DNA from: Candidatus Omnitrophota bacterium
GTDB taxonomy: Bacteria; Omnitrophota; Omnitrophia; Omnitrophales; Aquincolibacteriaceae
NCBI GenBank assembly: GCA_043718225.1
Contig: JAYSWD010000100.1
Location: 1 to 44,726, forward strand
Reading direction: 5' to 3'
DNA: 44,726 bases
This document shows, piece after piece, positions 19,678 through 44,726 of the stretch. The notes under the pieces were generated by a model, which worked only from the letters and a program-made list of their open reading frames with translations, searched no databases and was not told the origin of the DNA. The translations under genes were made by a program, and so were the position numbers. Position 1 is the first letter of the stretch. Every line of letters starts with the position of its first letter.

Positions 19678-19746
19678 GGTCTCCAGGATTGCAAAGTAGT
19701 TTCCTTTGATACCTTTTTCTTGCTCTGCTGTGCCGAGCAAGAAAAA
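19678..19746 (+). repeat. Roughly 68-nt direct repeat, right copy, downstream of the SPFH gene
   Basis: ggtctccaggattgcaaagtagtttcctttgatacctttttcttgctctgctgtgccgagcaagaaaaa. Confidence 0.6.
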
Positions 19747-27979: not shown

Positions 27980-27986
27980 CCTCATA

Positions 27987-28766
27987 CCTCCGTAGCCGCG
28001 TCGGCTCACATCCACGCAGGAGCCGACGCGGCTACGGAGGCCTGTTTTGCAAGTTGGCGTTGATACTCAATGTTTGAGTTAACAAAATAGGCGTAATTCT
28101 TCGGCTCAACGGAAATCCGGTTTTGAAAGCTGCAAATAGGAAGCTCCACGTTAGATTCGATGTATTCATGATAAGACGACCATTTCCATTCTTCCGGTTT
28201 ATCGACTAGATAAGCGGTGACCGGATTTAAATGAATGTAGCGCGTAAGATGTAGGACCTGCTCATCACTTTCACATAAAACTTTCTTGCTACGACCCTGC
28301 CATAATGGTCCTTTTCGATTGTGCAAAAAATTGAAATAGTGGGTATAACTGTTTAAGACATCATTTGAAAACTTTGATACAAACTCTTCTGAGTCAGCTT
28401 CCACGGCAATATGAAAATGAGTTGGCATGAGACAGTAAGCAAGGATGGTGATGGTTCTATTTTTATTGATGGGGAACGCCAGCAACGCGGAGAGGGAATT
28501 CTTTGTGTGTAATTCAAGAAATCGTGAGAAAGACACAAAAGCAGGTTTTGATTGATAAAATTTTAAAAGCATTTGCATTCGTAGGAAATCTTGAGGCCTA
28601 CAAAAAACTTCGTAACCCGCAATGCTCTTGTTGAATAAGTGGTAAACGAGGGGTGGCATGTATTCATTATAATCATAATATAATTATATTTAAATAAATA
28701 TTATGCTCTTTTCCACCGTAACCGCGTCGGCTCCGCTCTACGTGTGAGCCGACGCGGTTACGGTGG
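27987..28766 (-). mobile_element. RAYT/IS200-like unit: Y1 (HUH) transposase gene flanked by two near-identical REP-type hairpins
   Basis: Left hairpin 27987-28040: CCTCCGTAGCCGCGTCGGCTC-12-nt loop-GAGCCGACGCGGCTACGGAGG. Right hairpin 28713-28766: CCACCGTAACCGCGTCGGCTC-12-nt loop-GAGCCGACGCGGTTACGGTGG. The stems match at 19 of 21 positions. The transposase gene lies between them. Confidence 0.7.
28006..28659 (-). CDS. REP-associated tyrosine transposase (Y1 HUH, IS200-like family)
   Basis: HUH motif 'PTHFHIAVEA' and catalytic Tyr context 'RYIHLNPV', 217 aa. The 3' end of the ORF runs into the left hairpin. Confidence 0.75.
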   Translation of the reverse strand: MPPLVYHLFNKSIAGYEVFCRPQDFLRMQMLLKFYQSKPAFVSFSRFLELHTKNSLSALLAFPINKNRTITILAYCLMPTHFHIAVEADSEEFVSKFSNDVLNSYTHYFNFLHNRKGPLWQGRSKKVLCESDEQVLHLTRYIHLNPVTAYLVDKPEEWKWSSYHEYIESNVELPICSFQNRISVEPKNYAYFVNSNIEYQRQLAKQASVAASAPAWM

Positions 28767-28957
28767 TTATGAATTGATAGATGGCACTCTTTTTTTATGC
28801 TTATAGAGATTTTTTAAATTAAATTGAACCGACATTAGTTTTTTCGCTAGATTTAATTCTCAAATCTAAATTTTTTTTCATTTTCACTCTTGTTTTAAAC
28901 CCTCTCTACGAGTACATTTTTGGAACCTTTTTCCACTCTTTTTAAAAACGTTTTGTT

Positions 28958-31900
28958 TTGAAGGATTTCATGTTTCAAAAATGCTTCGGAAAATTTCTGC
29001 GGGCCACGGCAATCGTGACGCTTGTGACTTATATTCCGACTAATTTTTCTTATGCAGGTGTGACAGGGGCCGCGCCCGAAATTTCACTGCCCGCCGCATG
29101 GCAATTGAGTCAAAGTCTTGCGCTTGGATTGCCCGCTGAATTAGGCCGCATTGAAAGTTTGTCGCCCGGCCGCAAAGGCATTATTTTTCATCTTCAAACT
29201 GCGCACGGACATTATGAGGCGCAGGTCAAAATTCAAAAAATTCTCGAACAATTTGCCGGGCAATACGGATCCTATCCCGTGCTTCTGGAAGGTGCAGCCG
29301 GCAGGCTCAATGCCGAGCGCATTAATTTCTTTCCCAAAAATCCCGAACGCACAAAAGCAGCGGCGCATTTGCTTGCAAAAAAAGCGTTGGTCAAAGGGCC
29401 GGAACTTTACTTACTTGATCATCCCTCCGCTTTGGTGCAGGGCATCGAAAACGAAGCGGCGTACTGGGACAATCATCATCAATTTACATCGGTTTTACGC
29501 GCGCGTGAAGCGACGCAAACATTTTCAGAGGAATTCGACCGTGAGATGGAAAAAACAGCGGCCATTTTCGCGCCGGCTTTGCGCGGCTTTCTCAAAAGAG
29601 CCGAGCAGCATGAATTAGGAATTGTTTCTTACGAAAGCTGGATCGAAGAATTGCGCAACGCGGCCCAAAAGCATCTGAAAGTTGATTTAACGGACGCGGC
29701 CTGGCAGCTGCCGTGGCCGATGCTGGTGCGGTTTTTTAAAATTCAAAAAATTTCCAAAGCGTGGGATTCTCAAAAATATGAAAAAGAGAAGCCGCTTTTT
29801 ATTCGGGATGTCGAAAAGTATTTGACGAATCACAAAGTCCGAATCACGAATCACGAATTGTTTGATCGAATCAAACAATTGCTTGATTCCGCAGGGAAGA
29901 ATGTGCAGCTGCCTGAGCCCGAAACGGAAAATGCATTCGCCGAAATGCTGCGTTATTTGCCGCGCGATTTTGATTTTAAAACTTATCCGAATGTAACGCG
30001 CTTCATGGGGCTGCTTATCTTACAAAGCGAATTGCGCCCCGCCGCGCTCGTGTCTGAAATGCAGCGGATAGAACAGCTTGTCATGAATCAACTTGCGCGG
30101 GATGAAAGTGAAAAAGAAATTGGCACTGTTTTTTCTGATTACCGTCTGCTGAAAAAAACACTCGCATTGCAGTTGACACCGGATGATTTTAGAAAAATTA
30201 TTGAGCGTACAGCGACCAGCGTACAGCGTGCAGCGAAAATGCAGCCTTCTCAAATTACAGAGCGGCTTAAAGCGCTCAACAATCAACGCCGCGCTCAATA
30301 CTCGGTACGGGGTACGGGGTACGCAGAACCCTCTTCGAATTCAGTTCATGAGATTAAGGTTAAGTATCTCAAAGAGTTGGATGGGCTATTTAATCTTGCA
30401 ATTGAATTCTATCAGGGTGCGAAAAAGCGCGACGAACTCATGATTCAAAACACGGAGAATTATTTACAAAAAAATCCCGCGAAGTTTGCGGTTCTGGTGA
30501 CCGGGGGATTTCATACCGATGCCATGCGCAAGCAATTTGAAAAAGAGGGTTATGCCTACGCAGTCGTGACGCCCGCCATTTCCGGTCCCGATGAAGAGGG
30601 ATACAAAGCATATTTGAAAAATATGCTACAAAGCAGCACAGCGTACAGCGTACAACGTACCGCGCAAACGACATCGGGGTCTGTCCTTGGCGCGAATGCG
30701 ACGGGGACTGACCCCCATGCTCTTTTCAATCGCAACCAAAATCTTGAATCTGCTTATGGCACCGATATTTTGGGAGAAGCGACGCGTCGTTCTGAATTTA
30801 GAATGCTCGTGCAAGCTGCGCGTGACGGGAATTTAAGCTTACCGCACCGCTCTGAAAACCGCGCTTCCGCCGAACCTGCCGAAGAAGAGCTTCCTGCCCC
30901 AAGGACGTCAGCAGAATTAGCACAAAGAACAACTTGGCCTACCAGCAGAATTTCAAAAGCAGCGTATTCGGCCAAAATAGAGAAACGCAGAGGGCGCTCT
31001 GAAGCGCGGGATAAGAGACCGGATCCTGCCGGTGAGTTGGTGACCCAGGATGAAAAGAGGCGTAGAGCTTTTTCGAATCAAGCAACGAATCGCTTGAACA
31101 GCAAGACAGCCTTGCTTGTGGTCGTTTTTGCGACGGCATTTTTGATTTTTGGGCCATTGTGGCTTTATTTAGATTCAGTCACAACGAAAATGGCCGCGGT
31201 TGATGCGCAGAAAAAGCAATATTTTTTGGATGGGGGGCCGGATGCACTAGGTGAATTCAAGCCGGTTGTACCGCATACGTTTTGGGACACGCTGGTTGAA
31301 ATTTGGCAGTGGGTCTTGGTTGCAGGGCAATATGTTTTAGCGGCGGGCATCGCGGTTGTTGTTCTCAAAATTGTTTCCTCGCTGTATTTTTCTTTTCGCG
31401 CCATGCGTGATGCGCGCGTGGGATATGTCATGCTCCCGGACAGCGATAATCTTGAAGCGGCATTCGATCGGCTTTTGTGGTATCGCGATGAAAAGCATTT
31501 TCAGGTTTCAATACGCCTGAATGGCGACGGAGAGCATGTTTTAGATTCGCAGGCCGTTTCCGAACGTTTTTTTGCAGCAATTAAACGGGCCCTTATTTCC
31601 GATTACGGAGCCGGCAGAAAAAATCCTATTTCAGCCAGCTATTTATTTGACAATGCCGCCAAAAAAGTGACTTTGCATTTAAAGACGCGCCGCCAAAATC
31701 CGAAGGATCGCGGCGAGTTCGAAGCGACGAACTTGATCGAGGGAACTTTTTTATTCACACCGCCTTGGCACCGTCGAAGCTGGATTACAAAAAACTTAAA
31801 CCGCCTTGCCGATCAAATGAGCGCAGCGCATGACGAAAAGCAGACGCGTGTTATTCGCGGCATGCCGCGGTCCGCGACGAAGCAGAATGATATGGTTCTG

Positions 31901-34900
31901 GTTTTTCGTCCCGATACGAAAGCATTATCAAATGTGGCTATGTATATGCGTGTGCTGCTTGCGATATGGCGCCATGGTTACGCTGTCGTCGAAAGCCGGG
32001 CTTATTCAGCGGCTGATTTAAGATACGGCATTATTAATCAGCCGTCTATTCTTGCGCAATTGTCTCCGGCCATGGAGGCTCTTTCAGCGGGTAAAATAAC
32101 CGGCAATAAGGATGGGGGTGAAGCTTTATTTTTTACTCCGGAGCAACGGAGCCTATTTCAGCGGGAAGCCCTTCCGTTTATGGCGGAGAAAGGTACCGAT
32201 GAGGAAAACTTGATTGGCGCGGGAGCATTATTACAGAAGTCCGGTTTAAAATTGCGCGATTTGAAAGCTTTATATCAAAAAGCACCGCAGGATATTTTCG
32301 GAGAAGGTGATGAACGTTTTGAAATCTCTATTTTGACTTTGCCCGATGCTGAGCATATTCAGCCCCAATTCAGAAACCGAACACTAGCCGTTTTGAACGT
32401 GTTTTATGAAATTGAAAAAGCGCGATTTATAGAAAGTTCCGATTCCACGGTGGTTTTGCGCCTCCGGCCCTTGAGAAAATTTCCGCTTCCGGTTTCAGAA
32501 CGGCAAGTAGCGCTTCTTCGCCATTTTGGTTTTCAGAATACAACACAGATGTCGGTCGATTCCTGGTCTTGGCGCGCGCAAGAAGATGATCCTTTGCTTG
32601 GATTGGGCCCCTATTACAGCTTTGATTCTCAGCGCCCATTTATCGAGATTATGTTAGCGGAGGAAGTTGCCGTTGCGCTGCGCGCCTGGTTTACCCCGCA
32701 AATAACTTCGCTGCGTTCCGAAATGAGGGTGGAGCTGCAGGGAAGCGAGCCTACTTTTAAAGCGGGGTCTTTACCGCCGGGCTACAAACTTTTGAAATTC
32801 GATTTTACGGAAGAAGATAGGGAAAAGGTTTCAGAACTGTTTTCCGGCATGAAGCAGAATCTTCTCGCGCACCCAGGCCACAACGCACAAAGAAGATTCA
32901 CGAATCATATTGTCAAAAAAGTTTTTGGGCTGGCTGTTGCTCCGAAGCCGGGCGTTGCGCGGCATGCTGTTTATTTTGTGATTACGGATAAAAATCAAAT
33001 CGCGGCGGTTTATTTGCCCGCGTCTCAGCAGGAAGGCCTGGTAAAAGAAATCGCTGCCGGACATATTTTTTTGCCGAAACGAACCACGGAGTTTGGGCCT
33101 GTCAAAAAACATTTAGAGCGTCAGGGAATTGACAAAAAAGACATTTCTTCCTCTGCTGAAAGTTCAGCCGCGTACCTTGAATCCCAAAACCAGTCCAGTT
33201 TCGTTTTTGCTTCCCCCGCACGCTCCGAAATGCGGGAGTTTAAGCATGATAATTTAAACTGGAAAATTGCCGCTGACGAAGAAGTCTTATCGAAGGCTGC
33301 TGTGGATGCGATTGCAAAAGTGCTACTGGCGAAACCCAAAGCTGTTTTTCTTTTACCGGCGGGCAAAACGTCAGTGCGCATGTATGAGATTTTAGCGGAG
33401 CGAGCTAATGAAGAAGAAATCGATTTGACGCCGGCTACGATTTTTATGCTCACGGAGTATCGTGCAGGCAAAACCGCCCGCGCCTTTATTGACGAACATA
33501 TGAACAGCCCCATTGCTAGATTGAAAAGGCCCTCTGCGATTTATGTTTTGGATGGCACGACGAGGGAACCACAGAAAGAGGCGGAACAATACGAAAGAAT
33601 GATAGCCGAAGCAGGCGGTGTGGATCTTGCCGTATTAGAAATCGGTAATCAGGGTGAAATCGGTTTTAACGAAGTGGGCGCGTCTTTTGATTCCCCGGCG
33701 CGCGAAGTTACTTTGTCCGACACTTTACGAGCAGAGCACCAGGTGAGTTCTATGAAAGGGTTTACGGTGGGCATGCGAGTCATTCTTGATTCCAGAAAAA
33801 AAATTCTTTTGATCAGCGGTGCATCCAAAGCCAAAATTGCCGGAAAACTTTTTGGTCAAAAACCGGACCTATCTCTTCCCGCAAGCGTGCTGAAGCAGAG
33901 GGGGAATACAGATGTTTTGATTACAGAAGATGCCGAAATGAACATGGGTTTGCCGGAAAAAATGCAGGGCGCCCCGGGTTTTGAAGTTTATCAAGAAAGA
34001 GTGCATGCCGTGTTGGCGCAGGTTGTTGATCGGTGGATTGAGTCGGATAATAGTTACAAAGCGTATTTAAAAATATTGATCGAACTTGTTAAGAAAAATT
34101 TGAGAGTTGCGCCATTTTATACATTTTCAGAAATTGCGAGCGCGCCCGTGTTTAAGGAAGCAAAAAACATTCATCTTTTGCCTGAAATACTTGGCAATGC
34201 TGAGGTTGGCATGCGCGAAATAAATGTTTTTAAAACCGCTCCAGCATTACCCCCAAGTGATGAGGATCTAGCGGATGCATTGCGCGTCAAACGCGACACC
34301 GAACTTTTGGCTGCAACAACGATTTCGCGCGCGGAACTCGAAAAAGTCAATACTTCACAGGAGCCGTTGGGAATCAGCTTTAGCGGGCGCGAACAAAAAA
34401 TACATGCTGTTTGGTGGGGGCTAACAGAGATTCAACGCTCAGATTTTTCAAATTATTATGGAATCGGTACGCCGGAGACACCGCTTGCTCCGGCTGCATC
34501 GCAAATGGATATTGCAAAAGCACGCGGAAATGTTACGTCGGCGAATGTAGGCGCATCGATAAGAGTAGCAATAAGGAAACTGCGCGCGTTTGACGAACAG
34601 CCAGCTGTGGATGGGGCGCCTGAAGAATTGGGGCTGGCGCTAACTGATTTAATTGCTGAGATTTTGGCTGCTATGCCGGCAGGGACGGAGCTGGATGCGC
34701 AGCTATTAGCACGGCTTAAGAAGGCCGGACCCAAAGATGATCGCACTTGGCTCGAAGTTATTTTATTTAGCCGTCAAAAAGCTCTTTTAAAAATGTATGC
34801 CGACAAGCCGTTTGCAGCGGATGAAAAAGTTTCTCTCAAAGATCTTGTCGATGCTGCGCGAGGGAGTGATTCCGTCGGCAAATCTGTTTTGAAAAAAAGC

Positions 34901-37900
34901 ATCCTAAAATTTGTTGCAGAGAAAGGAATTGCCTGGGATTTGCTGTTTTTAAATGATCCGAATTTTGTGGAAAAAGCGGCTGGACCCTCTGCCGGAAAAG
35001 GATTGCGGGGCATAAGCACGAATCTTAAATGGACGCTTGCTAAGTTTTTAGAGCATGCGGACACGGATCGCGCATCGCTTGAAGAGGCAATAAAAAGCAA
35101 AACGGGAATTTTCGCGAAACCGCATGTTCGCATGTATTTTGGGTTGCGATTTTTGGGAAAAACCGAACGCGAAAATAAGGAAGTTATTGATTACCTTGCC
35201 AGAAGATACAAAGGGCAATATAAAATTGATGATGAATGGGCGCATGATTCCATTAAGCTTGCGAAAACCCAGTTTCATGGCATCAAAGAATTGCCGAAAG
35301 CCGAAACCGCGGCGAAGGAAGTTCCAGCTCCGGCGGCGGCAGAGTTGCAGGCTGACCCAAATCCCGCGGCGCCTCCTATGGAAATAACACCAATTGCGGC
35401 ACCTGATGGAATTCTTCCGGTTGAGGGGGCAGCTGCAGAACATGATGAGCCAGCCGCGGCGCCGCTCACTACTGATGCACCAGCAGGGAATGATTCTGAG
35501 CCAATAGCCGCGATTGCCGCTCCACCCGAATCTTATTCCGTTCTACGCGAGATGATGCAAAGGTCAAAACTTGCTTCGCCGCATCTTGACGAAATTCTCG
35601 CCTTAAGACGCAAAAATTGGATAAGAAAAATTCTGGAATTGGATTTAGTCGGTTATGAAGCGCGGTTAGCAGATTCTGCGCAGAAGGCACAGGCAACGCG
35701 GGAAATTCGAGGAATTATTGTCGAAGCAAAAATTGAGCGTTTGATTGAAAGTCCACATGGCGCGGCCGAAGAGCAAGCACGAGAAGTCGTAATTAAATTG
35801 AAAGAAATGATTCATTGGGAAGATCATGCCGGCGACATTGTTAAAATTGTCGCGCCTGAGCCGAAGCCTCGCGCGCCACAACCTGCTGCCGCGCCCTCTC
35901 CCTTGGCCGCCGCACCTGCTGAGCCGGAACTTCCGCCGGTTGATAGTGCGACAACAAAAGATTTTCAAAGCGACTTGCGTAAATGGCTGAATCTCGCTGA
36001 CCACAACTCTTTGGCACGGTTACTTCAGGATGCGTTTTTGAATCCTGCGGATGAAGTGAAAGTGAGTAAATGGGTGAGAGATAATCCGGATGCCGAAATC
36101 AAACTACGTTATTTGGAAAAACACAGCGCATCCCCGAGACAACAGCGTGAACTTTTTGCCAAGGCCCAAGCTATTTATAAAAGGTCCGATTACCCCCTTC
36201 TCGATCAGTTAAACGCGTTGAAATCAGAATTAGACGCTTTAATTGTGGATGCTAAAAGAACGGGCGCAGATTTAAACCCACTACTCAATTGGATGGGAAC
36301 AAAAGGTGCTGGGTTTAAACACAATGCGGACTATTTAGCAGGCAAAGGCTTTCCAGTTCGAGAGCATTTAGAAGCTCATGCTAACGCTGAAGATTTGTTT
36401 GTCGGCCGTTCCGAAATGCGAGAAATATTAATAGAAGCAGTCTCTCTCGACCCCATCGTTTTAGACGACGGCCGGGAAATTCAAATGTTTGCGATTGATC
36501 CGAACGATGATCTTAATTGGAACGCGATACGCGAAGAAGGGGGATTGAGTGACGTTATTGATGAATTAATACCCGAAGACTTTCCGTCACCCTCACTTCT
36601 TTTTACTGAGATACAATTTCGTCTTGGAATATTGGATGGCCGTCTTGTTTTGATAGATGATGTGGATGGTCATGAACACAGAGGATCAACGACTCATAGA
36701 GGGATGGCTTTGGGTTTAAACGGTGAAAAGGCACAAATAGAAGCTGCCACGCGAGGCGCGCAGCTCACAATAATCGATCTTCCCGCAATCGAGCTTCCAG
36801 TGCGCATTGGTACCCCGGCTGCTGCTGGCGGGTACACTCCGATTACCTTTGAAGTTTCTAAGGCCCGCTCCGAATTCCGTTTCGCGCCGATGGCCACTTT
36901 TTCCGTGCTAGCAAAAAAAATTAGAGGCATCGATCCTTTTTATGCGGTCTTATTAGGTTTAGTTGGAGTGATTTTTTGGTTGAATGATCACAATTGGGGC
37001 GGTGCGGGAGTAATCGTCGCGCTTTTACTTCTTATAGCTAGAAAAGCAGGTGACAGAAAATTGCCGGATCAAACAAAAGAGCTGCTGGCAAATATTTTTT
37101 GGGAAATAAACGCTCGCAATATAAAAACAATTGTCTTTTATGTTAATGGGAACAAACGCGCGCACCAAATTGAGGTTGATCGGGATTTTGAACCGATTCT
37201 CAGGAAATCAATCCGTGAGGTTTTGGCACTTGCCACAAACAATGGGAACAATGGAATTGCCTGGGATTTCCCTGCCCCTGACGTGCGAGATTCCACTATT
37301 TTAACGGTAAACGTTTCCACTTCGCGCTCCGAAATGCGTACTGCGGATGAAAAAGTTCAAGATTTTATTACGACACTGCGAATGAAGCGGGCTGCCGTTG
37401 ATTTTACGAACAATGACATTCGTATTGCTTTGAATCCGTCCGAAGTCGCAATTGATGAAAGCCGTATTCCTACATTTACGGGACGATCAAAGGAAATTTT
37501 TGATATTTTTTCATTCATTGCTTATCGGCTCGGCTTAACGGTGGATCTTGTGTCTCTGGGTGAGCCTAAGACTGAGGAGCAATGGCTTGTTTTGACATCG
37601 CAACCCTCCGACACTGCCTTCCTGGAAAAATTGAAGACGACAGTCGAAACGCGCTATCCAAATTTGTTGTATAAAAATCAACTCGCGGCATCTGATCAAG
37701 ATTTTTATGCACCAACTAAAAAGCGGCCTTTTCTAGTCGCCCTGATGACTTTATTTGTTTCTATTGGGGGGATGATTTTAAATTTGCCCGCTCTATCTAA
37801 TTGGATGAAAAGCCGGGGTTGGACGAGTGCAAATGATCTTGTTTCAAGCATGCCTTTAATTTTCATTTTTGTGGCTAGCGCGGTTGTTGCGGGTGCTACT

Positions 37901-40900
37901 TACTTCGTCTCAAGTTTCATCGCCCGGAAATTTGCCCAACATCGTTCCGCAAAAAATTTGCGCAAAGCCGAACGTTTAGACGTCGCCAATGAAAAATGGC
38001 CGCACAATTTTAACAAAACACAACGCTCTGAATTACGCGAAGCGCAGCTCCGGCCCATTTTGGAAGGAAGCACGGATGCTTTAACCTGGTTTCAGGCATT
38101 CAGTGAATTTGAGCCCGCACAACCAAGCGACAAAGTGATTGTCACGATTCAGATTGCGCGCGGCATTCGAATGCAAGTCCCGATCTGGCGCGCAGCGCTC
38201 ACCGACCCTGAACTTCAAGAATCCGCTTACCGCTATCTTTCGACCTGGACTTATAATCTTTCCGCGCGATACGGGACTTCGTTTGCTGCGATCGGGACAG
38301 AAGGTACGGCAGAGTTGATTGATGTTGCAAGAATTGAGCATTTGTTAACTCGAGAGAATTTAGCCGCAGTTCATCAAAGCTACGAAGCATCCGGCGGTGT
38401 TAGTTCCTTTGGCATTAGTAATTATGCAAACGGAGGCGAGTCCGTTGAATTTAAAAAACTTTCGGAATTAACAGACGCAGAAAAAGAAGAAAAACCGCTG
38501 AGTTTAAATATCAAATTACGTACGGATGCGCCCGGATCTTATCTAGGCGTTGATATTGGCGGCGGTTCTGCGAAATTTGCTGTAATTCGAAACGGAAAAA
38601 TTTTAGATATTCCCGAAGAATTTCAAAGTCTTCCAACCGTTCTTTTAAATACCGCTAACGTAGAAGTTCAAGAAACGCCCCAACAATATTCCGAACGAAT
38701 CGCAGGGCATATTGAAAAAATTGGGAAAGCGCTTGGTATCAGATTCGACGGTATTGGAATCGATACTCCCGGAGCCAAACATTTGACTGAAAATAAGATG
38801 GTGACACTAGGGCAGCTTCCCGTTGTTAAGAAATGGGACATGGGCGCGGTTAAAGAGTTTGGCCGCTTACTTCCTCTTACTGTTGCGCAGAAACAAGGGC
38901 TGGATTCTGAAAAAGTGATGATTCGCAACGATATGGACGGCGTGCTTCCGGGCGTAGCCTCGGTGCTGCCGCAAATTGTGCCTGAATTTTGGAAAAGAAC
39001 CGGCGGTAATTTCCGTTTCGATTGGATGGGGACGGGGCATGGCAATCAGGACGCGATCGGCGGCCTTCCCATGAATGCGCCAACAGAGGCCGGTCATTTT
39101 GTGCATGATTTTGCACGCCCCGGCGCAAAAGTTTTTGACACCGAAGCTTCTACGAGCATTCCCGGAATGATACTCGATGCAATCACGCAGGTGAGTGGCA
39201 GCAGGAGTCGCTGGGATGAATTACTGCAAGGAAAATTTAAACCATTGGCCGAGGAGATTGCTAAACGTCCAGTTGATGCAAATTATGAAAGAGGAATGAT
39301 TGCTGCGAGGACTTTACGCCGCTTTGCTAACGAGTATGCCGCAAATTTAGCAATCCATTACTGGATGACTCAATCCACGGGGAAGGGCAGTCCGGATGAA
39401 ATTGTTTTTGGCGGCGGAATTGTCCGTAAAGGTAGAGAAGATTATTTTAAAAATTTGATACTTGAAGCGCTTAAAAAATATGATTTGCAGGATAAAATTC
39501 GCATTACGGTCATATCTGATGAGGACCTCAAAAAAGCAAATATGAGCCCGGACAATGCCGGCCCCATCGGAATGGCGATGTTTATTCAAAGCGTTCTCGC
39601 GTCGAACCAAGCCACGACAACGTTAGAGCCCAATCCTATTACTGCAGCCGAATGGGCAGCGGTAAGAAAAGATTTTAAAGTTGATGATGACGCGCGGATA
39701 CCTCTCGCGCTAGCGGGAGTCTCTGAAACGGATGCCCAGAGAATTTACAGTCATCTCTTTCGTTATGATGGGCCGATTCAGCGTGTCATGGCCGCATTAC
39801 ATAAATTGGACCCAAGGCGATTTGACCTTCACCCTATCCTTTTCCTTGTGAATGATGATTTGTCAGACTATGACCCAAATTGGGGGCCAATTGTGCAAAG
39901 AACCCCACTTAAAGTAATTGTCGTTCCTGTCTCGACAGCATTTTTACAGAAAGTGAAAGCTGCACCTGCCGGTACTTTGTCAGAAGCTGAAATGGAGTTG
40001 TATTCCCGCTTTGCGTTTTCACTTACGGTTGCCCGCATGAGCCCCGCTGTGCATATGATTTTAAATACAGAAAACGTCTCGATTTCATTACCGGTGGAAA
40101 TTATTTTGAAAATGGCCTCCTGGGATGCCGCAGCATTGCGCAACTTTGAAGAGGTTCTTGGCTATAAAGTGGATGAGGGACTTGGGCAAAGCAATATTCC
40201 AGCACCCGCTTATTTAGATCCCAATGTTATAGATGCCCTTCGGCAAATGAATCTTGGTGATGGAAGAGCGGATTTCTTAGAGGTAAGCGATGCATTAGCA
40301 GCTTTTGTGAACGCCGAAGAAATTCGAACGGCAATCCGTTCAGGAGCATTGGATCATGCCCGCCAAATATTTTTGGGGCTTAAAGAAACCAAGGGCTGGC
40401 CTATGAATTATCTATTACCGCAGCAAATTGATCCGGCGGGGGTGCTTTATCAAGATGAAATGCATGCTTACCTGGGGATTATGAACCATTTAATTCTCAT
40501 TGAACAGTTTCGTGATGCTTTGCCGGCATTTTACGAAGAACAAATTCGCGCGTTGGAAAACGCGCAGGGCTTTTCTGCCGAAAAAGTCGCGCTTGCACGT
40601 AAGTATTTGGAACAATCGCCGGTATTGCGCGAGATGGCGGTGAAACAGACGGAACTTTCTGTGAGTCATATCACACAAAAATATCTTTTACCGGTGTCTC
40701 GCTTAATCGGGCGTGAAATTTTGCGCGAAAAAATAAGACAACAGCTAAATATGGGCCAGGAAGCGGCAAGTAAACTTGTTTTCACAGGATTGACCGAAGA
40801 ACTTTTCGAACGTGCCGCACAATTAGCGGGTAAACCGACCGCTCAGGATGTTGGAGTAGACCTTTCACATGCGAGCATTAGCGCAAAGCGGAATTCTGGC

Positions 40901-43009
40901 GGCGAGCCAGTTGTCATACCGTTTGCCCAATGGGATGCCACAACTCAGGCTGATTACCGCGAGCTCGCAATCGAAGGTGTTGAATTCGCCAAACGCTCTG
41001 AATTTCGTGTCTCGAACCACCAATCACCAATCACGAACAACGTCAAAGCCCGCTCCGAAATGCGGGAATCAGTCAATTACGAAGAAACTCTCGCGTTGAT
41101 TAGAAGCGCAACGCGAACCAAAGTTGAAAATGTGCCCGATACCAATCTTGAGTTATGGAAGTTTTACGGCGGCGCAAATGGCGATGAGCGTTTAGTTCAA
41201 GTTGAAGTCTTTCCAAAGAAAGGCCGCAGTGTTCAATTTAGCGGAATCAAGGTTTTTGGCCGTGGGGCAGGGGGATATTTGAATGATCCATGGAATGCGG
41301 CCTTGTTTGCTGATTCGCAAGTAGGCGCAAACGGGGAAGTAGCAGGTCTGGTTTCCCAGCATGTCGCCGATCAGCGTAAAGCAAAGTTAATAGCAGCGGC
41401 GCGCAAGAAAATTCAATCCCGTTCCGAAATGCGGGAAGTTGAGGTGGAAGTCAACAAGGTGGCAAGAAATCAAATATTAGCGGCGATTGTTACTGGGCTT
41501 GTTAAGGACGATAAAGGCGGATCTGTTCATCTGACTGTTAATACAGCATCCGTTAAGGCGGAGGAAGAATTAAAAGCGCTTGGCTTTAGTTTTAAACCAG
41601 TTGATGCTTTGCAATGGTTGCGTGAAAGCCTTTCCTCGGTGACAAAAGTTGTTCCCAAGCCCGGACAAATGCAAATTCACGCATTTGTTGGTGAGATCAA
41701 ATTAGTCATACAGTTAACAGAAGAACCTTCTGCGTTCGGCGATGGAGTTCGGCATTCTACTTATTTGCTTCCGATTATTACTCGGGGGCCGCCGGTTCAT
41801 TTTGAGAATCTTTATCCTGCCGAACTTAAAGTTCAAGGTGTTCTTCAAACCGCAGAGGCTCTTCGTGCTTTTTTAACCAACACAGAAGTTGCTGCTTATG
41901 ACGGTAGAATTATTTCCGAAGACGGAGTAGCTGCTGCTCAGCGAGAACAAGAAGTACGCAAGCGGTTAGGAACTAGCGCCACAGCTCTTTTAGAAAAGAT
42001 CCAAGCCATGCAGGCGGTTGTGCAAAGATTGAAACAACTCTTTGAGGGTACTCGGTCCGGCCTTTTAGAATGGACAGAGATTGAACAGCGTACCGCCGGT
42101 TTGAACGGCCAAAAAGATTTACTCGCAGCTGCTGAAGCTTTTCTTTCCAGGGCAAACCGCGTACCCGTGACAGAAAAAATTGAAAGTGTTCGAACTTACG
42201 CCAGCGAGATTCAAGGTTTTCGAACAACACTGAACGCTGCCATTCGCGCGCGCCTTGAAGAGGATCAAAAAGCAGTTGCTGAAAAAATTAACGCGCTTGG
42301 AGTTTCTGCTGTCGACCTTGCGATTCTCGGCGAAGTAAATGTTGATTTGATTACCGCTAAGGTTGCAAAGGATTGGGATTGGGGCAAGCGTTTGCTCGCG
42401 AAAGCTATGACTCTTTCAGCAGCCATTGACGGTCTTTCGCCAAGTTATGATCAATTTTCCACGCGAGCACAAGCGAATAGTTTTCAATACGCAGATTTAG
42501 AAAATAAAATCTTAGCCTTGCGTCAAATGAAAGAGCATTTGGAAAATGGTTTGCTGAACGCGGTGAAAGCCTATACTCCGGTGTCCGCATGGCAGCACAG
42601 TTTGCGTGGGGCCCAAAATTGGGCAAGAACACATCCTCGAAGCACCCGTTTTATTGTTGTGAGCATTGCCGTTTTTATCGGACTTACCGTGTTTTTTATA
42701 ATGACCATTCCTGAGCGCCGGGAAAAAGCCCGAGCTGCCGCGGCTCGCGCACAGGAAGCGGCCGTTTTAAAGCCGATTCGTGATTTTGTGAATGAAACCG
42801 CCGGCAACAAAAGCGAAACCTATTTTTCACAAGAGGTGGAACGCCAGGGTATTAACAATCTGAAATCAGCAGAAATTGCGCGGACGAGCGATCAAGTTGA
42901 TGCTTTTCGCGGAGTTACCTATCAAAATTGGAAAGGATTCGTTTTAAAAGACGGCAGAAACATCAAATTTATGATAATCAATTTTATAAGTTTGGCGGAA
43001 AATATTTAA
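28958..43009 (+). CDS. Giant multi-pass membrane/surface protein (4683 aa) with embedded NagB-like and ROK/ASKHA kinase-like domains
   Basis: Single uninterrupted frame of 14,052 nt. Signal peptide 'FLRATAIVTLVTYIPTNFSYA|GV'. TM clusters near aa 705-790, 2625-2665, 2895-2960 and 4595-4620. Ala/Pro-rich linkers at 35330-35520 and 35860-35940. The RSE(M/F)R motif recurs. The start could be TTG 28958 or ATG 28970. Confidence 0.8.
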   Translation: MKDFMFQKCFGKFLRATAIVTLVTYIPTNFSYAGVTGAAPEISLPAAWQLSQSLALGLPAELGRIESLSPGRKGIIFHLQTAHGHYEAQVKIQKILEQFAGQYGSYPVLLEGAAGRLNAERINFFPKNPERTKAAAHLLAKKALVKGPELYLLDHPSALVQGIENEAAYWDNHHQFTSVLRAREATQTFSEEFDREMEKTAAIFAPALRGFLKRAEQHELGIVSYESWIEELRNAAQKHLKVDLTDAAWQLPWPMLVRFFKIQKISKAWDSQKYEKEKPLFIRDVEKYLTNHKVRITNHELFDRIKQLLDSAGKNVQLPEPETENAFAEMLRYLPRDFDFKTYPNVTRFMGLLILQSELRPAALVSEMQRIEQLVMNQLARDESEKEIGTVFSDYRLLKKTLALQLTPDDFRKIIERTATSVQRAAKMQPSQITERLKALNNQRRAQYSVRGTGYAEPSSNSVHEIKVKYLKELDGLFNLAIEFYQGAKKRDELMIQNTENYLQKNPAKFAVLVTGGFHTDAMRKQFEKEGYAYAVVTPAISGPDEEGYKAYLKNMLQSSTAYSVQRTAQTTSGSVLGANATGTDPHALFNRNQNLESAYGTDILGEATRRSEFRMLVQAARDGNLSLPHRSENRASAEPAEEELPAPRTSAELAQRTTWPTSRISKAAYSAKIEKRRGRSEARDKRPDPAGELVTQDEKRRRAFSNQATNRLNSKTALLVVVFATAFLIFGPLWLYLDSVTTKMAAVDAQKKQYFLDGGPDALGEFKPVVPHTFWDTLVEIWQWVLVAGQYVLAAGIAVVVLKIVSSLYFSFRAMRDARVGYVMLPDSDNLEAAFDRLLWYRDEKHFQVSIRLNGDGEHVLDSQAVSERFFAAIKRALISDYGAGRKNPISASYLFDNAAKKVTLHLKTRRQNPKDRGEFEATNLIEGTFLFTPPWHRRSWITKNLNRLADQMSAAHDEKQTRVIRGMPRSATKQNDMVLVFRPDTKALSNVAMYMRVLLAIWRHGYAVVESRAYSAADLRYGIINQPSILAQLSPAMEALSAGKITGNKDGGEALFFTPEQRSLFQREALPFMAEKGTDEENLIGAGALLQKSGLKLRDLKALYQKAPQDIFGEGDERFEISILTLPDAEHIQPQFRNRTLAVLNVFYEIEKARFIESSDSTVVLRLRPLRKFPLPVSERQVALLRHFGFQNTTQMSVDSWSWRAQEDDPLLGLGPYYSFDSQRPFIEIMLAEEVAVALRAWFTPQITSLRSEMRVELQGSEPTFKAGSLPPGYKLLKFDFTEEDREKVSELFSGMKQNLLAHPGHNAQRRFTNHIVKKVFGLAVAPKPGVARHAVYFVITDKNQIAAVYLPASQQEGLVKEIAAGHIFLPKRTTEFGPVKKHLERQGIDKKDISSSAESSAAYLESQNQSSFVFASPARSEMREFKHDNLNWKIAADEEVLSKAAVDAIAKVLLAKPKAVFLLPAGKTSVRMYEILAERANEEEIDLTPATIFMLTEYRAGKTARAFIDEHMNSPIARLKRPSAIYVLDGTTREPQKEAEQYERMIAEAGGVDLAVLEIGNQGEIGFNEVGASFDSPAREVTLSDTLRAEHQVSSMKGFTVGMRVILDSRKKILLISGASKAKIAGKLFGQKPDLSLPASVLKQRGNTDVLITEDAEMNMGLPEKMQGAPGFEVYQERVHAVLAQVVDRWIESDNSYKAYLKILIELVKKNLRVAPFYTFSEIASAPVFKEAKNIHLLPEILGNAEVGMREINVFKTAPALPPSDEDLADALRVKRDTELLAATTISRAELEKVNTSQEPLGISFSGREQKIHAVWWGLTEIQRSDFSNYYGIGTPETPLAPAASQMDIAKARGNVTSANVGASIRVAIRKLRAFDEQPAVDGAPEELGLALTDLIAEILAAMPAGTELDAQLLARLKKAGPKDDRTWLEVILFSRQKALLKMYADKPFAADEKVSLKDLVDAARGSDSVGKSVLKKSILKFVAEKGIAWDLLFLNDPNFVEKAAGPSAGKGLRGISTNLKWTLAKFLEHADTDRASLEEAIKSKTGIFAKPHVRMYFGLRFLGKTERENKEVIDYLARRYKGQYKIDDEWAHDSIKLAKTQFHGIKELPKAETAAKEVPAPAAAELQADPNPAAPPMEITPIAAPDGILPVEGAAAEHDEPAAAPLTTDAPAGNDSEPIAAIAAPPESYSVLREMMQRSKLASPHLDEILALRRKNWIRKILELDLVGYEARLADSAQKAQATREIRGIIVEAKIERLIESPHGAAEEQAREVVIKLKEMIHWEDHAGDIVKIVAPEPKPRAPQPAAAPSPLAAAPAEPELPPVDSATTKDFQSDLRKWLNLADHNSLARLLQDAFLNPADEVKVSKWVRDNPDAEIKLRYLEKHSASPRQQRELFAKAQAIYKRSDYPLLDQLNALKSELDALIVDAKRTGADLNPLLNWMGTKGAGFKHNADYLAGKGFPVREHLEAHANAEDLFVGRSEMREILIEAVSLDPIVLDDGREIQMFAIDPNDDLNWNAIREEGGLSDVIDELIPEDFPSPSLLFTEIQFRLGILDGRLVLIDDVDGHEHRGSTTHRGMALGLNGEKAQIEAATRGAQLTIIDLPAIELPVRIGTPAAAGGYTPITFEVSKARSEFRFAPMATFSVLAKKIRGIDPFYAVLLGLVGVIFWLNDHNWGGAGVIVALLLLIARKAGDRKLPDQTKELLANIFWEINARNIKTIVFYVNGNKRAHQIEVDRDFEPILRKSIREVLALATNNGNNGIAWDFPAPDVRDSTILTVNVSTSRSEMRTADEKVQDFITTLRMKRAAVDFTNNDIRIALNPSEVAIDESRIPTFTGRSKEIFDIFSFIAYRLGLTVDLVSLGEPKTEEQWLVLTSQPSDTAFLEKLKTTVETRYPNLLYKNQLAASDQDFYAPTKKRPFLVALMTLFVSIGGMILNLPALSNWMKSRGWTSANDLVSSMPLIFIFVASAVVAGATYFVSSFIARKFAQHRSAKNLRKAERLDVANEKWPHNFNKTQRSELREAQLRPILEGSTDALTWFQAFSEFEPAQPSDKVIVTIQIARGIRMQVPIWRAALTDPELQESAYRYLSTWTYNLSARYGTSFAAIGTEGTAELIDVARIEHLLTRENLAAVHQSYEASGGVSSFGISNYANGGESVEFKKLSELTDAEKEEKPLSLNIKLRTDAPGSYLGVDIGGGSAKFAVIRNGKILDIPEEFQSLPTVLLNTANVEVQETPQQYSERIAGHIEKIGKALGIRFDGIGIDTPGAKHLTENKMVTLGQLPVVKKWDMGAVKEFGRLLPLTVAQKQGLDSEKVMIRNDMDGVLPGVASVLPQIVPEFWKRTGGNFRFDWMGTGHGNQDAIGGLPMNAPTEAGHFVHDFARPGAKVFDTEASTSIPGMILDAITQVSGSRSRWDELLQGKFKPLAEEIAKRPVDANYERGMIAARTLRRFANEYAANLAIHYWMTQSTGKGSPDEIVFGGGIVRKGREDYFKNLILEALKKYDLQDKIRITVISDEDLKKANMSPDNAGPIGMAMFIQSVLASNQATTTLEPNPITAAEWAAVRKDFKVDDDARIPLALAGVSETDAQRIYSHLFRYDGPIQRVMAALHKLDPRRFDLHPILFLVNDDLSDYDPNWGPIVQRTPLKVIVVPVSTAFLQKVKAAPAGTLSEAEMELYSRFAFSLTVARMSPAVHMILNTENVSISLPVEIILKMASWDAAALRNFEEVLGYKVDEGLGQSNIPAPAYLDPNVIDALRQMNLGDGRADFLEVSDALAAFVNAEEIRTAIRSGALDHARQIFLGLKETKGWPMNYLLPQQIDPAGVLYQDEMHAYLGIMNHLILIEQFRDALPAFYEEQIRALENAQGFSAEKVALARKYLEQSPVLREMAVKQTELSVSHITQKYLLPVSRLIGREILREKIRQQLNMGQEAASKLVFTGLTEELFERAAQLAGKPTAQDVGVDLSHASISAKRNSGGEPVVIPFAQWDATTQADYRELAIEGVEFAKRSEFRVSNHQSPITNNVKARSEMRESVNYEETLALIRSATRTKVENVPDTNLELWKFYGGANGDERLVQVEVFPKKGRSVQFSGIKVFGRGAGGYLNDPWNAALFADSQVGANGEVAGLVSQHVADQRKAKLIAAARKKIQSRSEMREVEVEVNKVARNQILAAIVTGLVKDDKGGSVHLTVNTASVKAEEELKALGFSFKPVDALQWLRESLSSVTKVVPKPGQMQIHAFVGEIKLVIQLTEEPSAFGDGVRHSTYLLPIITRGPPVHFENLYPAELKVQGVLQTAEALRAFLTNTEVAAYDGRIISEDGVAAAQREQEVRKRLGTSATALLEKIQAMQAVVQRLKQLFEGTRSGLLEWTEIEQRTAGLNGQKDLLAAAEAFLSRANRVPVTEKIESVRTYASEIQGFRTTLNAAIRARLEEDQKAVAEKINALGVSAVDLAILGEVNVDLITAKVAKDWDWGKRLLAKAMTLSAAIDGLSPSYDQFSTRAQANSFQYADLENKILALRQMKEHLENGLLNAVKAYTPVSAWQHSLRGAQNWARTHPRSTRFIVVSIAVFIGLTVFFIMTIPERREKARAAAARAQEAAVLKPIRDFVNETAGNKSETYFSQEVERQGINNLKSAEIARTSDQVDAFRGVTYQNWKGFVLKDGRNIKFMIINFISLAENI
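29825..30666 (+). repeat. Cluster of four in-frame tandem-heptamer runs in the 5' part of the giant gene
   Basis: 29825-29859: ACGAATC ACAAAGT CCGAATC ACGAATC ACGAATT. 30205-30239: GCGTACA GCGACCA GCGTACA GCGTGCA GCGAAAA. 30303-30324: CGGTACG GGGTACG GGGTACG. 30634-30666: CAGCGTA CAGCGTA CAACGTA. They encode 'TNHKVRITNHE', 'ERTATSVQRAAK', 'YSVRGTGYA' and 'STAYSVQRTAQ'. Confidence 0.6.
33250..33940 (+). other. NagB/glucosamine-6-phosphate deaminase-like domain inside the giant ORF
   Basis: 'AVDAIAKVLLAKPKAVFLLPAGKTSVRMYE...ATIFMLTEYRAG...GGVDLAVLEIGNQGEIGFNEVGASFDSPAREVTLSDTLRAEHQ...GFTVGMRVILDSRKKILLISGASKAKIAGKLFG' follows the NagB order (LGLATGSTP / FNLDEY / [24 protein letters not shown] / SG.GKA). 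Here GEDGH reads GNQGE. Confidence 0.55.
38535..39480 (+). other. ROK/ASKHA sugar-kinase-like domain inside the giant ORF
   Basis: 'SYLGVDIGGGSAKFAVIRNGKIL' is a phosphate-1 motif. 'IRFDGIGIDTPGA' is a phosphate-2 / GIGxPG motif. 'IRNDMDGVLPGV', 'GTGHGNQDAIGG' and 'DEIVFGGGIVRKG' are adenosine-motif-like. No Zn-binding cysteines are present. Confidence 0.5.
41013..41046 (+). repeat. In-frame tandem heptamer run (TCGAACC ACCAATC ACCAATC ACGAACA) in the giant gene
   Basis: Read directly. It encodes 'SNHQSPITNNV' and lies between two RSE(F/M)R motifs at 40988 and 41051. Confidence 0.55.
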
Positions 43010-44726
43010 GTCCCGATGAACTTAAAGCGGTTACGCGGATTATTTTTGAAAGAAAGATCTTGGACGGGAAAGCCGAAGACGCGGGTTTGTTTGAACGGGA
43101 CCTAGCGCTTTTCGTGCTCAAAGAAAGTTTTAATCCAGATTCCGTAGCCGCGCTGGAAAACATCCGCCGGTTTTGGAAAATAATTCTAAAGGCGGGCGAA
43201 TTCCAACCGCAAAATCTTGTTATTTCAGAGCCTGAGCAGCCCTTAAAAACTTTTATATGGAATCTCACAGAAGGGCAGAAGGCGGCAGGGCCTGTCAGCC
43301 CGGGCGATTTAGTGATCGTGGGTTTAACGCCGTCGACGGCCGGCGAGCTTCTGGTTGGCAGTAGTTCGGAAAAGATTTTGTTTTCTTCCCCGCTTACTTT
43401 ATTAAGGGGCGCCACTCCGTCCGGGTTGAACAAAGTTAAGGTGGTTCAAGGCGGGCCGGTAACCTTTGCCATGCAGAATTCTGATACGGTTGTGGCCGCC
43501 CAAGTCGAGTCGGGAGGCATTGCGAACATCGCTTTTATTCAAATATCTGATTCGGTGAAACGTTTAGCCGCGAATCTTGGTGTGATGGTAAATGATGTTG
43601 CGGGTATTAGCCCATGGATGATTTATAAGTATGGCCAAGCGTTCCTAGCTTTAGAAACAATCGACCCCAAGACAAGGCAGATGTACATTGTGATTGCTGA
43701 TATTTCGAATCATTTCGGACTGCCTTCACCGATGAAGCCAGCGAGTGAAATGGTTATCGCGAAAATCGCAGGTGATTCTTTTAAAATGGACGTGAATAAG
43801 CAGATCGTTCGAATTTTTATAGGTGATCACGCCACTGCGCTTGTGGATTTAAAAACAAGTGCGATATACGGCGATGAAAGATTAGTTCCTAACGCCATCA
43901 GAAATCACAAGGGTGAAATTCTCGATCCCGAAAAGATCTTTCAGACACGCGATCTCCAGAAAATGATCGCGCTGCTGAATCAAATGGCAAACGAAAATCA
44001 AGTTGCTATCGTTGCTAAAGAACTTTTTGAGCAAGCCATTTACTTTCTTTATAAGGAGCCTTCATTTGAGGCGATGCAGGCTTGGGCTAAAAAACAAAAG
44101 CATGAGCAGGACAAGCGTGACGCAAACAGCACTTACACCGCAGCGTTTTTAAACGCGGATCAAGAACAGCTGGTCGCTTCGCAGCTTATGCGGAATCCCT
44201 TTCAAAATTTTTATCCTCCTGTTACGCAAATCATTCATTTTAAAAATGATGTTGATGCGAACCACAGTTTTGTGATTTCGTATACGCGCAATGCCGACGC
44301 TCCGGCGGAGGGCATTTTCCGAATTCTGGAAATGCTTCCAGGCGGCGGAATGACGATTCGGCAGGAGCGTACCGGTATTTATACCGGTTTTTCAATTACC
44401 ACCCTGGGAGTTGTAACGCTTCTGAATCAAGCCGGAGGTGTCGCGCATTTTGATTTGCGCAAAGGCATCGACTTGAGTAAGGGGTCTATGATCCCCAAGC
44501 GCTCCGAAATGCGCATTGACCTTGGTGCCATGCCGCGGACCATGAGCATTATTCCGGGCCATGACTATTGGGAGATTGTCGTGCCAGCGGGGGAAACACG
44601 CGCGAGGCTTTTGCTCGCCGTCATTGCAAATATGGTCAATCCACTCAACTCTGCCAGGATTGCGGAAGTTACGAAACGCATTCAGGGCGCGTTCGCGGGA
44701 GGATTTGATAGAGTTGTGGTGATCGC
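42901..44726 (+). CDS. Open reading frame continuing in the -1 frame past the giant ORF stop (at least 608 codons, 3'-partial)
   Basis: Frame 1 is open from the stop at 42898-42900 to the window end. It overlaps the last 109 nt of the giant ORF, which is in frame 2. The first in-frame ATG is at 43468. It contains 'PKRSEMRIDLG' with the same CGCTCCGAAATGCG nucleotide motif as the giant ORF. Confidence 0.45.

Follow-up and report, generated by a model that had tools for sequence, protein, structure and literature searches.

Whether the products of giant genes in Omnitrophota and related uncultured bacteria act as one chain or are cut is a puzzle. Cleavage into products is suspected in the literature on these genes, its sites have not been located before, and West-Roberts et al. 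(2023, bioRxiv 10.1101/2023.11.21.568195) state that the cleavage points are unknown. The window analyzed here, the whole 44,726-nt stretch of contig JAYSWD010000100.1 (Candidatus Omnitrophota bacterium, assembly GCA_043718225.1), carries a giant open reading frame (ORF) in which the pentapeptide R-S-E-x-R recurs with nearly fixed codons. What is this motif for? We propose that it is a separator at the module starts of a bacterial polyprotein, most likely recognized by an endopeptidase that processes the chain, with the conserved amino-terminal domain of the giant proteins (N-domain) as the candidate enzyme. Judged from sequence, this reading stands about midway between doubtful and secure.

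Results

The R-S-E-x-R motif in the window

Six-frame and pattern searches identified 13 in-frame copies of R-S-E-x-R, 12 in the giant ORF and one in an overlapping downstream ORF. Lengths are given in amino acids (aa).

28970–43009, + strand: giant ORF, 4,679 aa; multi-module, membrane-associated, candidate polyprotein.
30788–30802, + strand: motif 1, RSEFR (CGT TCT GAA TTT AGA), in the disordered tail after the N-domain, at the family consensus position.
30848–30862, + strand: motif 2, RSENR (CGC TCT GAA AAC CGC), newly found.
30995–31009, + strand: motif 3, RSEAR (CGC TCT GAA GCG CGG), newly found.
32714–32728, + strand: motif 4, RSEMR (CGT TCC GAA ATG AGG).
33221–33235, + strand: motif 5, RSEMR (CGC TCC GAA ATG CGG), directly at the start of the NagB-like module.
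36407–36421, + strand: motif 6, RSEMR (CGT TCC GAA ATG CGA).
36866–36880, + strand: motif 7, RSEFR (CGC TCC GAA TTC CGT), followed by a hydrophobic hairpin.
37325–37339, + strand: motif 8, RSEMR (CGC TCC GAA ATG CGT).
38024–38038, + strand: motif 9, RSELR (CGC TCT GAA TTA CGC), at the start of the module shared with protein P0028; the high-scoring segment pair (HSP) begins 4 aa before the motif.
40994–41008, + strand: motif 10, RSEFR (CGC TCT GAA TTT CGT).
41051–41065, + strand: motif 11, RSEMR (gcC CGC TCC GAA ATG CGG), matching the full nucleotide consensus.
41420–41434, + strand: motif 12, RSEMR (tcC CGT TCC GAA ATG CGG).
44500–44514, + strand: motif 13, RSEMR (CGC TCC GAA ATG CGC), in the downstream ORF.

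The first-pass annotation of this DNA had listed 11 copies. All of them are present, four with coordinates off by 2 to 6 nt, and the last one (RSEMR at 44500) was correctly placed in the downstream −1-frame ORF. Two copies had been missed, RSENR at 30848 and RSEAR at 30995. Composition predicts about 0.09 RSExR in 4,683 aa. Each RSE tripeptide in the giant ORF continues as xR without exception, and the only two RSE tripeptides in 21 housekeeping ORFs both lack xR and both use other Ser codons. A control set of 80 unrelated loci (~1.3 Mb, six frames) yielded only nine RSE[MFLIV]R, with mixed codons.

The first Arg is CGY, Ser is TCY, and Glu is GAA in all 13 copies, as had been claimed for the original 11; the second Arg is mixed (AGA, AGG, CGA, CGC, CGG, and CGT). 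The view that these codons depart from ordinary usage stands for Arg and Ser, which are well above the giant ORF background (CGY 0.51, TCY 0.39), but not for GAA, which is near background (0.71) and is simply the preferred Glu codon. The joint probability of the codon pattern is ~5e-10 for 11 copies. The 9-mer CGYTCYGAA occurs 18 times compared to 2.9 expected, and 13 of the 18 are the in-frame motif copies. The exact 14-mer CGYTCCGAAATGCG is common to six copies rather than the seven first counted, the copy at 32714 ending in ...ATGAG. The flanks of the motifs within the window are unrelated to one another. The motifs at 36407, 36866, and 37325 are spaced by exactly 459 nt (153 aa) twice, and the intervening segments do not align.

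Conservation of the motif in a family of giant proteins

Residues 1–1200 of the giant protein were used in an exhaustive HMMER search of cluster representatives (E <1e-3). The family consists of 5,783 cluster representatives, most of them 2,000–7,800 aa long, that have no more than the N-terminal ~570 residues in common. In the top 150 hits (430,099 aa), the tripeptide RSE is present 875 times and extends to RSExR in 745 cases. The residue at x is L, V, A, M, S, or I in these hits, and the flanks are essentially without conservation. Of the 99 members with 2,000 aa or more, 92 have at least three copies. These long members hold 895 R[SATNP]ExR where 39 would be expected, and the median distance between copies is 214 aa. 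Arg5 is kept through both CGN and AGR, and Glu is GAA or GAG as often as in the background. The search in relatives that the annotation had called for thus finds the motif hundreds of times in distant homologues from many metagenomes.

Giants that are poor in RSExR carry RAExR, RTExR, RNExR, or RPExR instead. Both giants on contig Ga0080064_1000003 (L117 and L152) use RAExR, and the giants L091 and L128 on contig Ga0172379_10000848 have a common mixed A/T/P pattern. Because the variants are concerted in giants on the same contig, the data suggest one recognizer common to all giants of a genome.

Metagenome loci were collected by a pattern scan from a tight alignment, which gave 73 loci; an N-domain query in a word-indexed search had returned only two hits. 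A genome can hold several giants. Motif density in the retrieved loci is 2.39 per 1,000 aa in ORFs with the N-domain compared to 0.17 in the other ORFs of the same loci, a 14-fold difference. The relatives hold NagB, PGI, FBPase, DHDPS, PGM, GDH, URO-D, GHMP-kinase, and ACP domains within one ORF. Pattern scans of the GTDB species genomes and the JGI metagenomes with the whole giant protein found no close relative.

Position of the motif at module starts

The motif lies at the N-terminal edge of conserved modules such as the NagB-like, ROK-like, and GDH modules. Two of these are recognizable in the window.

33266–33946, + strand: NagB-like module (glucosamine-6-phosphate deaminase/isomerase fold), Pfam PF01182 (E 8.6e-10).
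38012–39589, + strand: conserved module with a weak ROK-kinase-like region, BLASTP match to P0028 (E 1.6e-72); Pfam ROK (E 0.0073) is below the family cut-off.

The NagB-like module also matches NCBIfam NF001684 (E 5.7e-31) and PDB entry 2bkv (E 4e-19). It begins at a motif in the window protein, P0002, and P0041, and in P0002 and P0041 it also ends at one (RSEFR and RSEGR). At the corresponding place (33946–33990, aa ~1655–1670) the window protein reads GLPEKM, apparently a separator that has decayed, so that NagB is fused to the following ~800 aa.

All-versus-all BLAST between family members was evaluated outside the N-domain. Thirty percent of HSP starts fall within 10 aa of a motif compared to 6.4% of random points and 11.5% of HSP ends. 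These data bear out the earlier impression that the motif sits at module boundaries. Over positions −4 to −1, P/S/T/A are overrepresented and D/E underrepresented, and the upstream linkers are Pro/Ser/Thr/Ala-rich. Position x is mostly M/V/L/A, and position +1 is S/T/A/N, with Pro and aromatics depleted. In AlphaFold2 (AF2) models, confidence is low in the chain that leads to the motif, and a confidently predicted fold begins directly behind it. At motif 5, the predicted local distance difference test (pLDDT) score jumps from <50 to >78. The first motif follows the N-domain at a conserved distance, and model residues 556–606 have pLDDT <50.

An internal translation start at the x codon was considered and rejected. 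NTG accounts for only ~37% of x codons, and the position is often occupied by Ala, Ser, or Thr.

The N-terminal domain

The N-domain is the one part common to the family.

29132–30634, + strand: N-domain, aa ~55–555; probable divergent TIKI/TraB/EreA/ChaN-fold hydrolase and candidate processing protease.

Its key residues lie in HLQTAH79G, LLE107G, and TGGFH515. H79 and E107 hardly vary and are separated by 28 aa, and H515 in TGGFH is a third conserved His. Catalytic His-Glu pairs with the same 28-aa separation are found in Bcr135 (H85/E113) and RRSP (H3902/E3930). Compared with the 2His/2Glu set of RRSP, the His-Glu pair and the second His are present, and the second Glu was not located. The predicted fold is alpha/beta with a parallel beta-sheet core, as in structures of the TIKI/TraB/EreA/ChaN family. 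The N-domain differs from the TIKI/TraB/PrgY/EreA/ChaN/RRSP superfamily members in being very divergent, in a ~350-aa helical insertion, and in its fixed place at the N-terminus of giants. No curated family model reaches threshold: PF04187 matches 3/21 members (best E 0.0046), DUF5694 also matches 3/21, and NCBIfam gives no hit. Neither Foldseek against the PDB nor a profile search of PDB sequences was significant, so the assignment to the TIKI fold is made with moderate confidence. Tiki and RRSP, both members of the TIKI superfamily, are sequence-specific endopeptidases. These comparisons make the N-domain the best candidate for the processing protease.

Domain organization and topology of the giant ORF

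The giant ORF encodes several unrelated modules: the N-domain, membrane hairpins, the NagB-like and ROK-like modules, and further modules without assignment. The hydrophobic segments are as follows.

28970–29059, + strand: signal-peptide-like or anchor segment (MFQKCFGKFLRATAIVTLVTYIPTNFSYA|GV), identified by inspection; helix 2–25 in the AF2 model.
31094–31396, + strand: first hydrophobic, transmembrane (TM)-like pair, aa 713–739 and 784–813, from a hydropathy scan.
36926–37039, + strand: second hydrophobic pair, aa ~2657–2694, the first segment from the hydropathy scan and the second from sequence inspection.
37724–37921, + strand: third hydrophobic pair, aa 2923–2946 and 2960–2988, from the hydropathy scan.
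42641–42715, + strand: single C-terminal hydrophobic segment, aa 4562–4586, from the hydropathy scan.

The topology thus consists of an N-terminal signal-like helix, three hairpin pairs, and a final single hydrophobic segment (28970–42715). Because the hydrophobic segments are paired, the N-domain, the enzyme-like modules, and all 12 motifs of the giant ORF would share one side of the membrane. We regard the product as a multi-module membrane-associated protein and a candidate polyprotein. The NagB-like module is the sole Pfam domain reported, and no RTX, cysteine-protease, C39, or S8 domain is among the Pfam hits. Self-BLAST found no internal repeats, and the repeat families detected cover only the motif itself. 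Internal segments of 588 aa and 1,067 aa had no homologue in the word-indexed search.

The ATG at 28970 is preceded by GAAGGA 5 nt upstream and agrees with the database gene call, the protein being identical to P0001 of the protein collection; the ORF listing gives an alternative TTG start at 28958.

A proposed separator of polyprotein modules

The giant ORF would encode a string of unrelated modules with R-S-E-x-R before each as the recognition site of an endopeptidase. A protease specific for R-[S/A/T]-E-[hydrophobic]-R would release the modules with short, clean N-termini, because the motif follows a disordered Pro/Ser/Thr/Ala-rich linker and stands right before the folded module. The cut may fall after the second Arg, where the +1 residues are mostly small. 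The N-domain would be the protease, and with the first site next to it, it may free itself first. A secondary nucleotide preference, C CGY TCC GAR NNG CGG, is carried by the same codons. The Arg5 codon mix, the Glu codons, the module edges, the lineage variants, and the N-terminal TIKI-fold domain support the peptide-level layer of the motif. Cleavage, its position, and the enzyme are what we infer from these features.

Several observations weigh against this proposal. Some motif-bearing ORFs have no N-domain, and the N-domain giants L138, L149, and L153 have no R-x-E-x-R and no other over-represented short motif that we could find. The TIKI superfamily also includes esterases and a haem binder, and protease activity is not guaranteed. 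By the positive-inside rule, the N-domain and the enzyme modules would be outside the cytoplasm, which is odd for sugar-phosphate enzymes. Finally, a purely proteolytic role leaves the bias at synonymous sites described below unexplained. L149 and L153 lie on one 2.17-Mb contig of ~40% GC.

Synonymous codon bias at the motif

Third positions were tested in a pooled set of 259 RSExR sites from 72 genes (the window, three contigs from an exact look-up, and the 73 metagenome loci) against what the encoded amino acid and the codon usage of each gene predict.

Codon −1: C favored, 131 observed, 72 expected.
Codon Arg1: C or T favored, 225 observed, 112 expected.
Codon Ser: C favored, 164 observed, 102 expected.
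Codon x: G favored, 147 observed, 92 expected.
Codon Arg5: G favored, 130 observed, 83 expected.

The Glu codon has no bias, there is none from codon +1 on, and codons −4 to −2 are only marginal (p ~0.005–0.03). RAExR sites have a like pattern (CGY 70%, GCC 70%). The synonymous positions are thus biased to C CGY TCC GAR NNG CGG, strictly in frame. These data establish a motif-specific nucleotide constraint.

Three origins of the bias were discarded. Neighbor-dependent codon bias was excluded by a control test. GC-biased conversion is unlikely, as the Glu codon is not shifted. A free-standing DNA site for methylation, restriction, or binding does not fit the distribution of the 9-mer, which in the giants occurs 234 times in frame compared to 5 and 6 times in the other frames and 14 times on the opposite strand. 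Outside the giants it occurs 37 and 38 times per strand in 557 kb, ~2x the composition-blind estimate of 17, with the excess partly in neighboring giant genes. The first-pass annotation had suggested a nucleotide-level function layered on peptide processing. That outline fits the bias in the 72 genes, but neither a methylation site nor a free-standing DNA or RNA site is supported, given the enrichment of the nucleotide motif only in frame on the coding strand.

The bias raises the possibility that R-[S/A/T]-E-x-R is dual-coded. It would be the cleavage site of a TIKI-fold leader protease not recognized before, which would make virus-like polyproteins with ordinary metabolic enzymes out of thousands of giant ORFs, 'operons in one reading frame', and the same 16 nt would be a selected mRNA signal acting in translation of the junction. 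We put this combination forward tentatively, as possible but less likely than not.

A stronger claim for the nucleotides is that the motif is primarily an mRNA or single-stranded DNA element, either a small hairpin within the reading frame or a linear RNA motif (CCGY-KCCGARNN-GCGG), placed at module boundaries, with the peptide partly a by-product. Such an element could pause ribosomes for co-translational folding or insertion, or stabilize segments of the long transcript. The bias is confined to codons −1, R1, S2, x, and R5 and is unexplained by neighbor-dependent codon usage, and the consensus C CGY KCC GAR NNG CGG forms an inverted repeat. In the mean over 385 sites, pairing probability is highest for 1:12, 0:13, 2:11, and −1:14, exactly the pairs of this repeat. 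Real sequence windows are more stable than their synonymous recodings (−7.0 versus −5.1 kcal/mol, mean z −0.73, p 6e-26), whereas control sites have a z of 0.03. RAEVR lineages have a near-invariant C CGC GCC GAG GTG CGG that forms a perfect 6-bp hairpin of −9.5 kcal/mol. However, the amino acids are kept across codon families, with R5 AGR at ~20%, Ser AGY at 5%, and GAA/GAG at background. Within genes, the inner pair does not covary and the outer pair does so only at p ~0.015. An AGR codon at R5 breaks the stem, yet the R1, x, and −1 biases are still present at such sites, and the S2 bias sits in the proposed hairpin loop. A 4-bp stem is formable at only 28% of sites and in 3/13 of the window sequences. 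A small hairpin at the motif is therefore partly supported, and we consider it improbable that a nucleotide element is the primary function.

The almost invariant 16-mer encodes the separator RAEVR in L117, L120, L133, and L136. Its hairpin has a CGAG loop and contains the Shine-Dalgarno-like GAGGUG.

A possible peptide motif without cleavage

The peptide could instead be a short linear motif that is never cut, namely a docking or assembly site bound by a partner at module starts, possibly by the N-domain as a noncatalytic binder like ChaN or PMT, or a modification site. The sharp motif, the linker context, the lineage variants, and the co-occurrence with the N-domain fit binding as well as cutting, and nonprotease members exist in the TIKI superfamily. 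On the other hand, an essential Ser modification is unlikely because whole lineages have Ala, Thr, Asn, or Pro at the Ser position. A noncatalytic binder is at odds with H79, E107, and H515, which are conserved as in active enzymes. Release explains more simply why otherwise stand-alone metabolic enzymes are strung together, each with a marker precisely at its N-terminal edge. We judge the uncut motif to be an unlikely account.

Possible exchange of modules between giant genes

The locus of L081, a close relative, was compared with the window. The two have the same gene order, flanking proteins that are 79–95% identical, and 76% nt identity over 5.8 kb. The L081 giant is 5,068 aa long. What it has in common with the window giant is limited to the N-domain (49% aa) and the NagB module, which is found at another position. 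Aligned over 22224–43009 of the window and 278–21471 of L081, the giant genes match only in the N-domain (66–70% nt) and the relocated NagB. The gene order permease-permease-glmU-prs-giant recurs in more distant loci. Because the flanks are conserved and the giant shares only these two parts, the giant gene is a hypervariable cassette array in a stable locus.

Such an array invites the idea that the motif is an in-frame junction for cassette exchange by recombination at a conserved ~15-nt sequence, with the joining itself maintaining the consensus. Motifs are where homology between giants starts, the L081 giant differs from the window giant despite the conserved flanks, and one genome can hold several giants. 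But no recombinase is linked to the giant loci, the comparison showed no recently exchanged stretch of high identity with motifs at its borders, and by our reading of the HSP ends given above (11.5%) there is no enrichment of these at motifs. The microhomology is broken up by the variable x codon, selection for evolvability is weak, and the strictly conserved Glu and Arg5 favor a protein-level reading. Exchange as the reason for the motif is therefore very unlikely.

Recent intragenic duplication, which the annotation had offered, ordinary tandem domain repeats, or chance with genome codon bias can draw on three successive copies exactly 153 aa apart and on GAA as the favored Glu codon, but have next to no probability given the unrelated flanks and negative self-BLAST, the diverse x and fifth codons, the hundreds of copies across distant genomes, and the composition and joint codon expectations reported above.

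The downstream ORF and neighboring genes

The thirteenth motif lies in a second ORF.

42901–44724, + strand: downstream ORF in the −1 frame, overlapping the last 108 nt of the giant ORF and running off the contig end.

This ORF has no Pfam, NCBIfam, or PHROG hit. It could be a separate motif-bearing substrate or the polyprotein continued by a frameshift or indel, and the overlap at 42901–43009 could reflect programmed frameshifting, an assembly indel, or a separate gene. A slippery heptamer of the canonical −1 type, T_TTA_AAA, is found in the giant's frame at 42943–42949, and no convincing structure follows it (z −1.0). Possible starts of the downstream ORF itself are TTG at 42928, 43060, and 43087 and GTG at 43114.

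The window also encodes rplQ, an aminotransferase, surA-pdxA-ksgA, purN, a prolyl oligopeptidase, gatCAB, tsaD, hisG, ispE, clpX, two ABC permeases, a glmU-like gene, and prs, followed by the giant ORF. The best match of prs in the GTDB species genomes is a Candidatus Omnitrophota metagenome-assembled genome (64% identity), and the next matches are labeled Planctomycetia and FCPU426. The giant ORF is probably from Omnitrophota. One tRNA is the only Rfam match in the window, and no rRNA was found there.

An IS200-like Y1 transposase ORF (28006–28659, − strand) lies between prs and the giant gene (region 27986–28767). It is flanked by palindromes resembling repetitive extragenic palindromic (REP) elements at 27987–28040 and 28713–28766, each with a perfect 21-bp stem and containing GTAG. 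The unit looks like a RAYT/REPtron-like insertion and is absent from the syntenic relative L081. A ~52-nt intergenic repeat family (67–87% identity) is found at 10776–10827, 18191–18242, and 19678–19729. An inverted partner comes after the copy at 18.2 kb and after that at 19.7 kb, giving a long hairpin in each case. The family may represent terminators or else a small mobile repeat on either side of the SPFH gene. Two intergenic regions are joined by an inverted repeat of 21 nt (86% complementary; 9231–9251 and 11083–11103). Its arm at 9231 contains CGTTCCGAA, and its arm at 11083 overlaps a noncoding GSEMR (11078–11092). The GSEMR at 11081 was considered as a motif copy and set aside as incidental, since it sits in noncoding sequence, a short ORF between stop codons.

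Discussion

One functional parallel to the proposed separator is the MARTX toxin, a giant modular bacterial protein in which its own protease cuts the linkers between unrelated effector modules. As in the present family, module content varies between close strains, and the MARTX effector RRSP has a TIKI fold. MARTX is a secreted toxin with RTX repeats and an InsP6 (inositol hexakisphosphate)-activated cysteine protease domain that cuts after Leu. In contrast, the window ORF has no RTX or cysteine-protease hits in Pfam or NCBIfam, its modules are metabolic and interspersed with hairpins, and its site is R-x-E-x-R.

Viral polyproteins (flavivirus NS2B-NS3, picornavirus 3C, and potyvirus NIa) have a short lineage-specific peptide repeated at junctions that co-varies with the protease, and in flaviviruses P1 is basic and P1′ is small. 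The window differs in that it holds a chromosomal bacterial gene in a conserved housekeeping neighborhood, a protease candidate of another fold class, and no PHROG hits. Arg-defined sites that release domains are also cut by the proprotein convertases (furin R-x-x-R, kexin) and the Arg-gingipains (RgpA/Kgp/HagA). These belong to other enzyme families, none of which was detected here, and the present motif has R-x-E-x-R spacing with an invariant Glu. At the nucleotide level, REP-type and intercistronic hairpins are short GC-rich palindromes between functional units that stabilize segments of polycistronic mRNAs. The palindrome described here differs in lying within the reading frame, in being 4–6 bp long, in being tied to a conserved peptide, and in its weak covariation.

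Giant proteins of a similar build have been described as 'Archaeovorins' (West-Roberts et al. 2023, bioRxiv 10.1101/2023.11.21.568195) and 'multi-enzyme metabolic clusters' (Nielsen & Lui 2026, bioRxiv 10.64898/2026.06.07.730766). In both cases, as here, one long TM-rich ORF is tiled with sugar-metabolism domains (PGM, ROK, PGI, FBPase, and others). The window protein shares this TM-rich, tiled organization of the Omnitrophota giants and lacks their extreme length. It is 4.7 kaa (thousand aa) long in a family seen at 2–7.8 kaa, far below the focus of those papers on at least 10 kaa; the 2026 catalogue scans and plots proteins of at least 10 kaa. The papers point to C39 and S8 peptidase domains. 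A text search found no mention of a separator motif in either paper, and no term starting with 'cleav' or 'motif' in Nielsen & Lui. Literature searches on RSEMR and on an Omnitrophota polyprotein or cleavage site returned nothing relevant.

The motif and the N-domain together put forward a named candidate enzyme with specific catalytic residues. Separately, the synonymous constraint at the motif is of interest as an instance in which peptide and nucleotide codes overlap. A separator motif in more than 5,700 cluster representatives provides a testable cut map and allows in silico splitting for structure and function prediction. If the proposed reading is correct, R-S-E-x-R would be the cut map for Omnitrophota-type giant proteins, and cellular organisms would use virus-like polyprotein expression for housekeeping-type enzymes.

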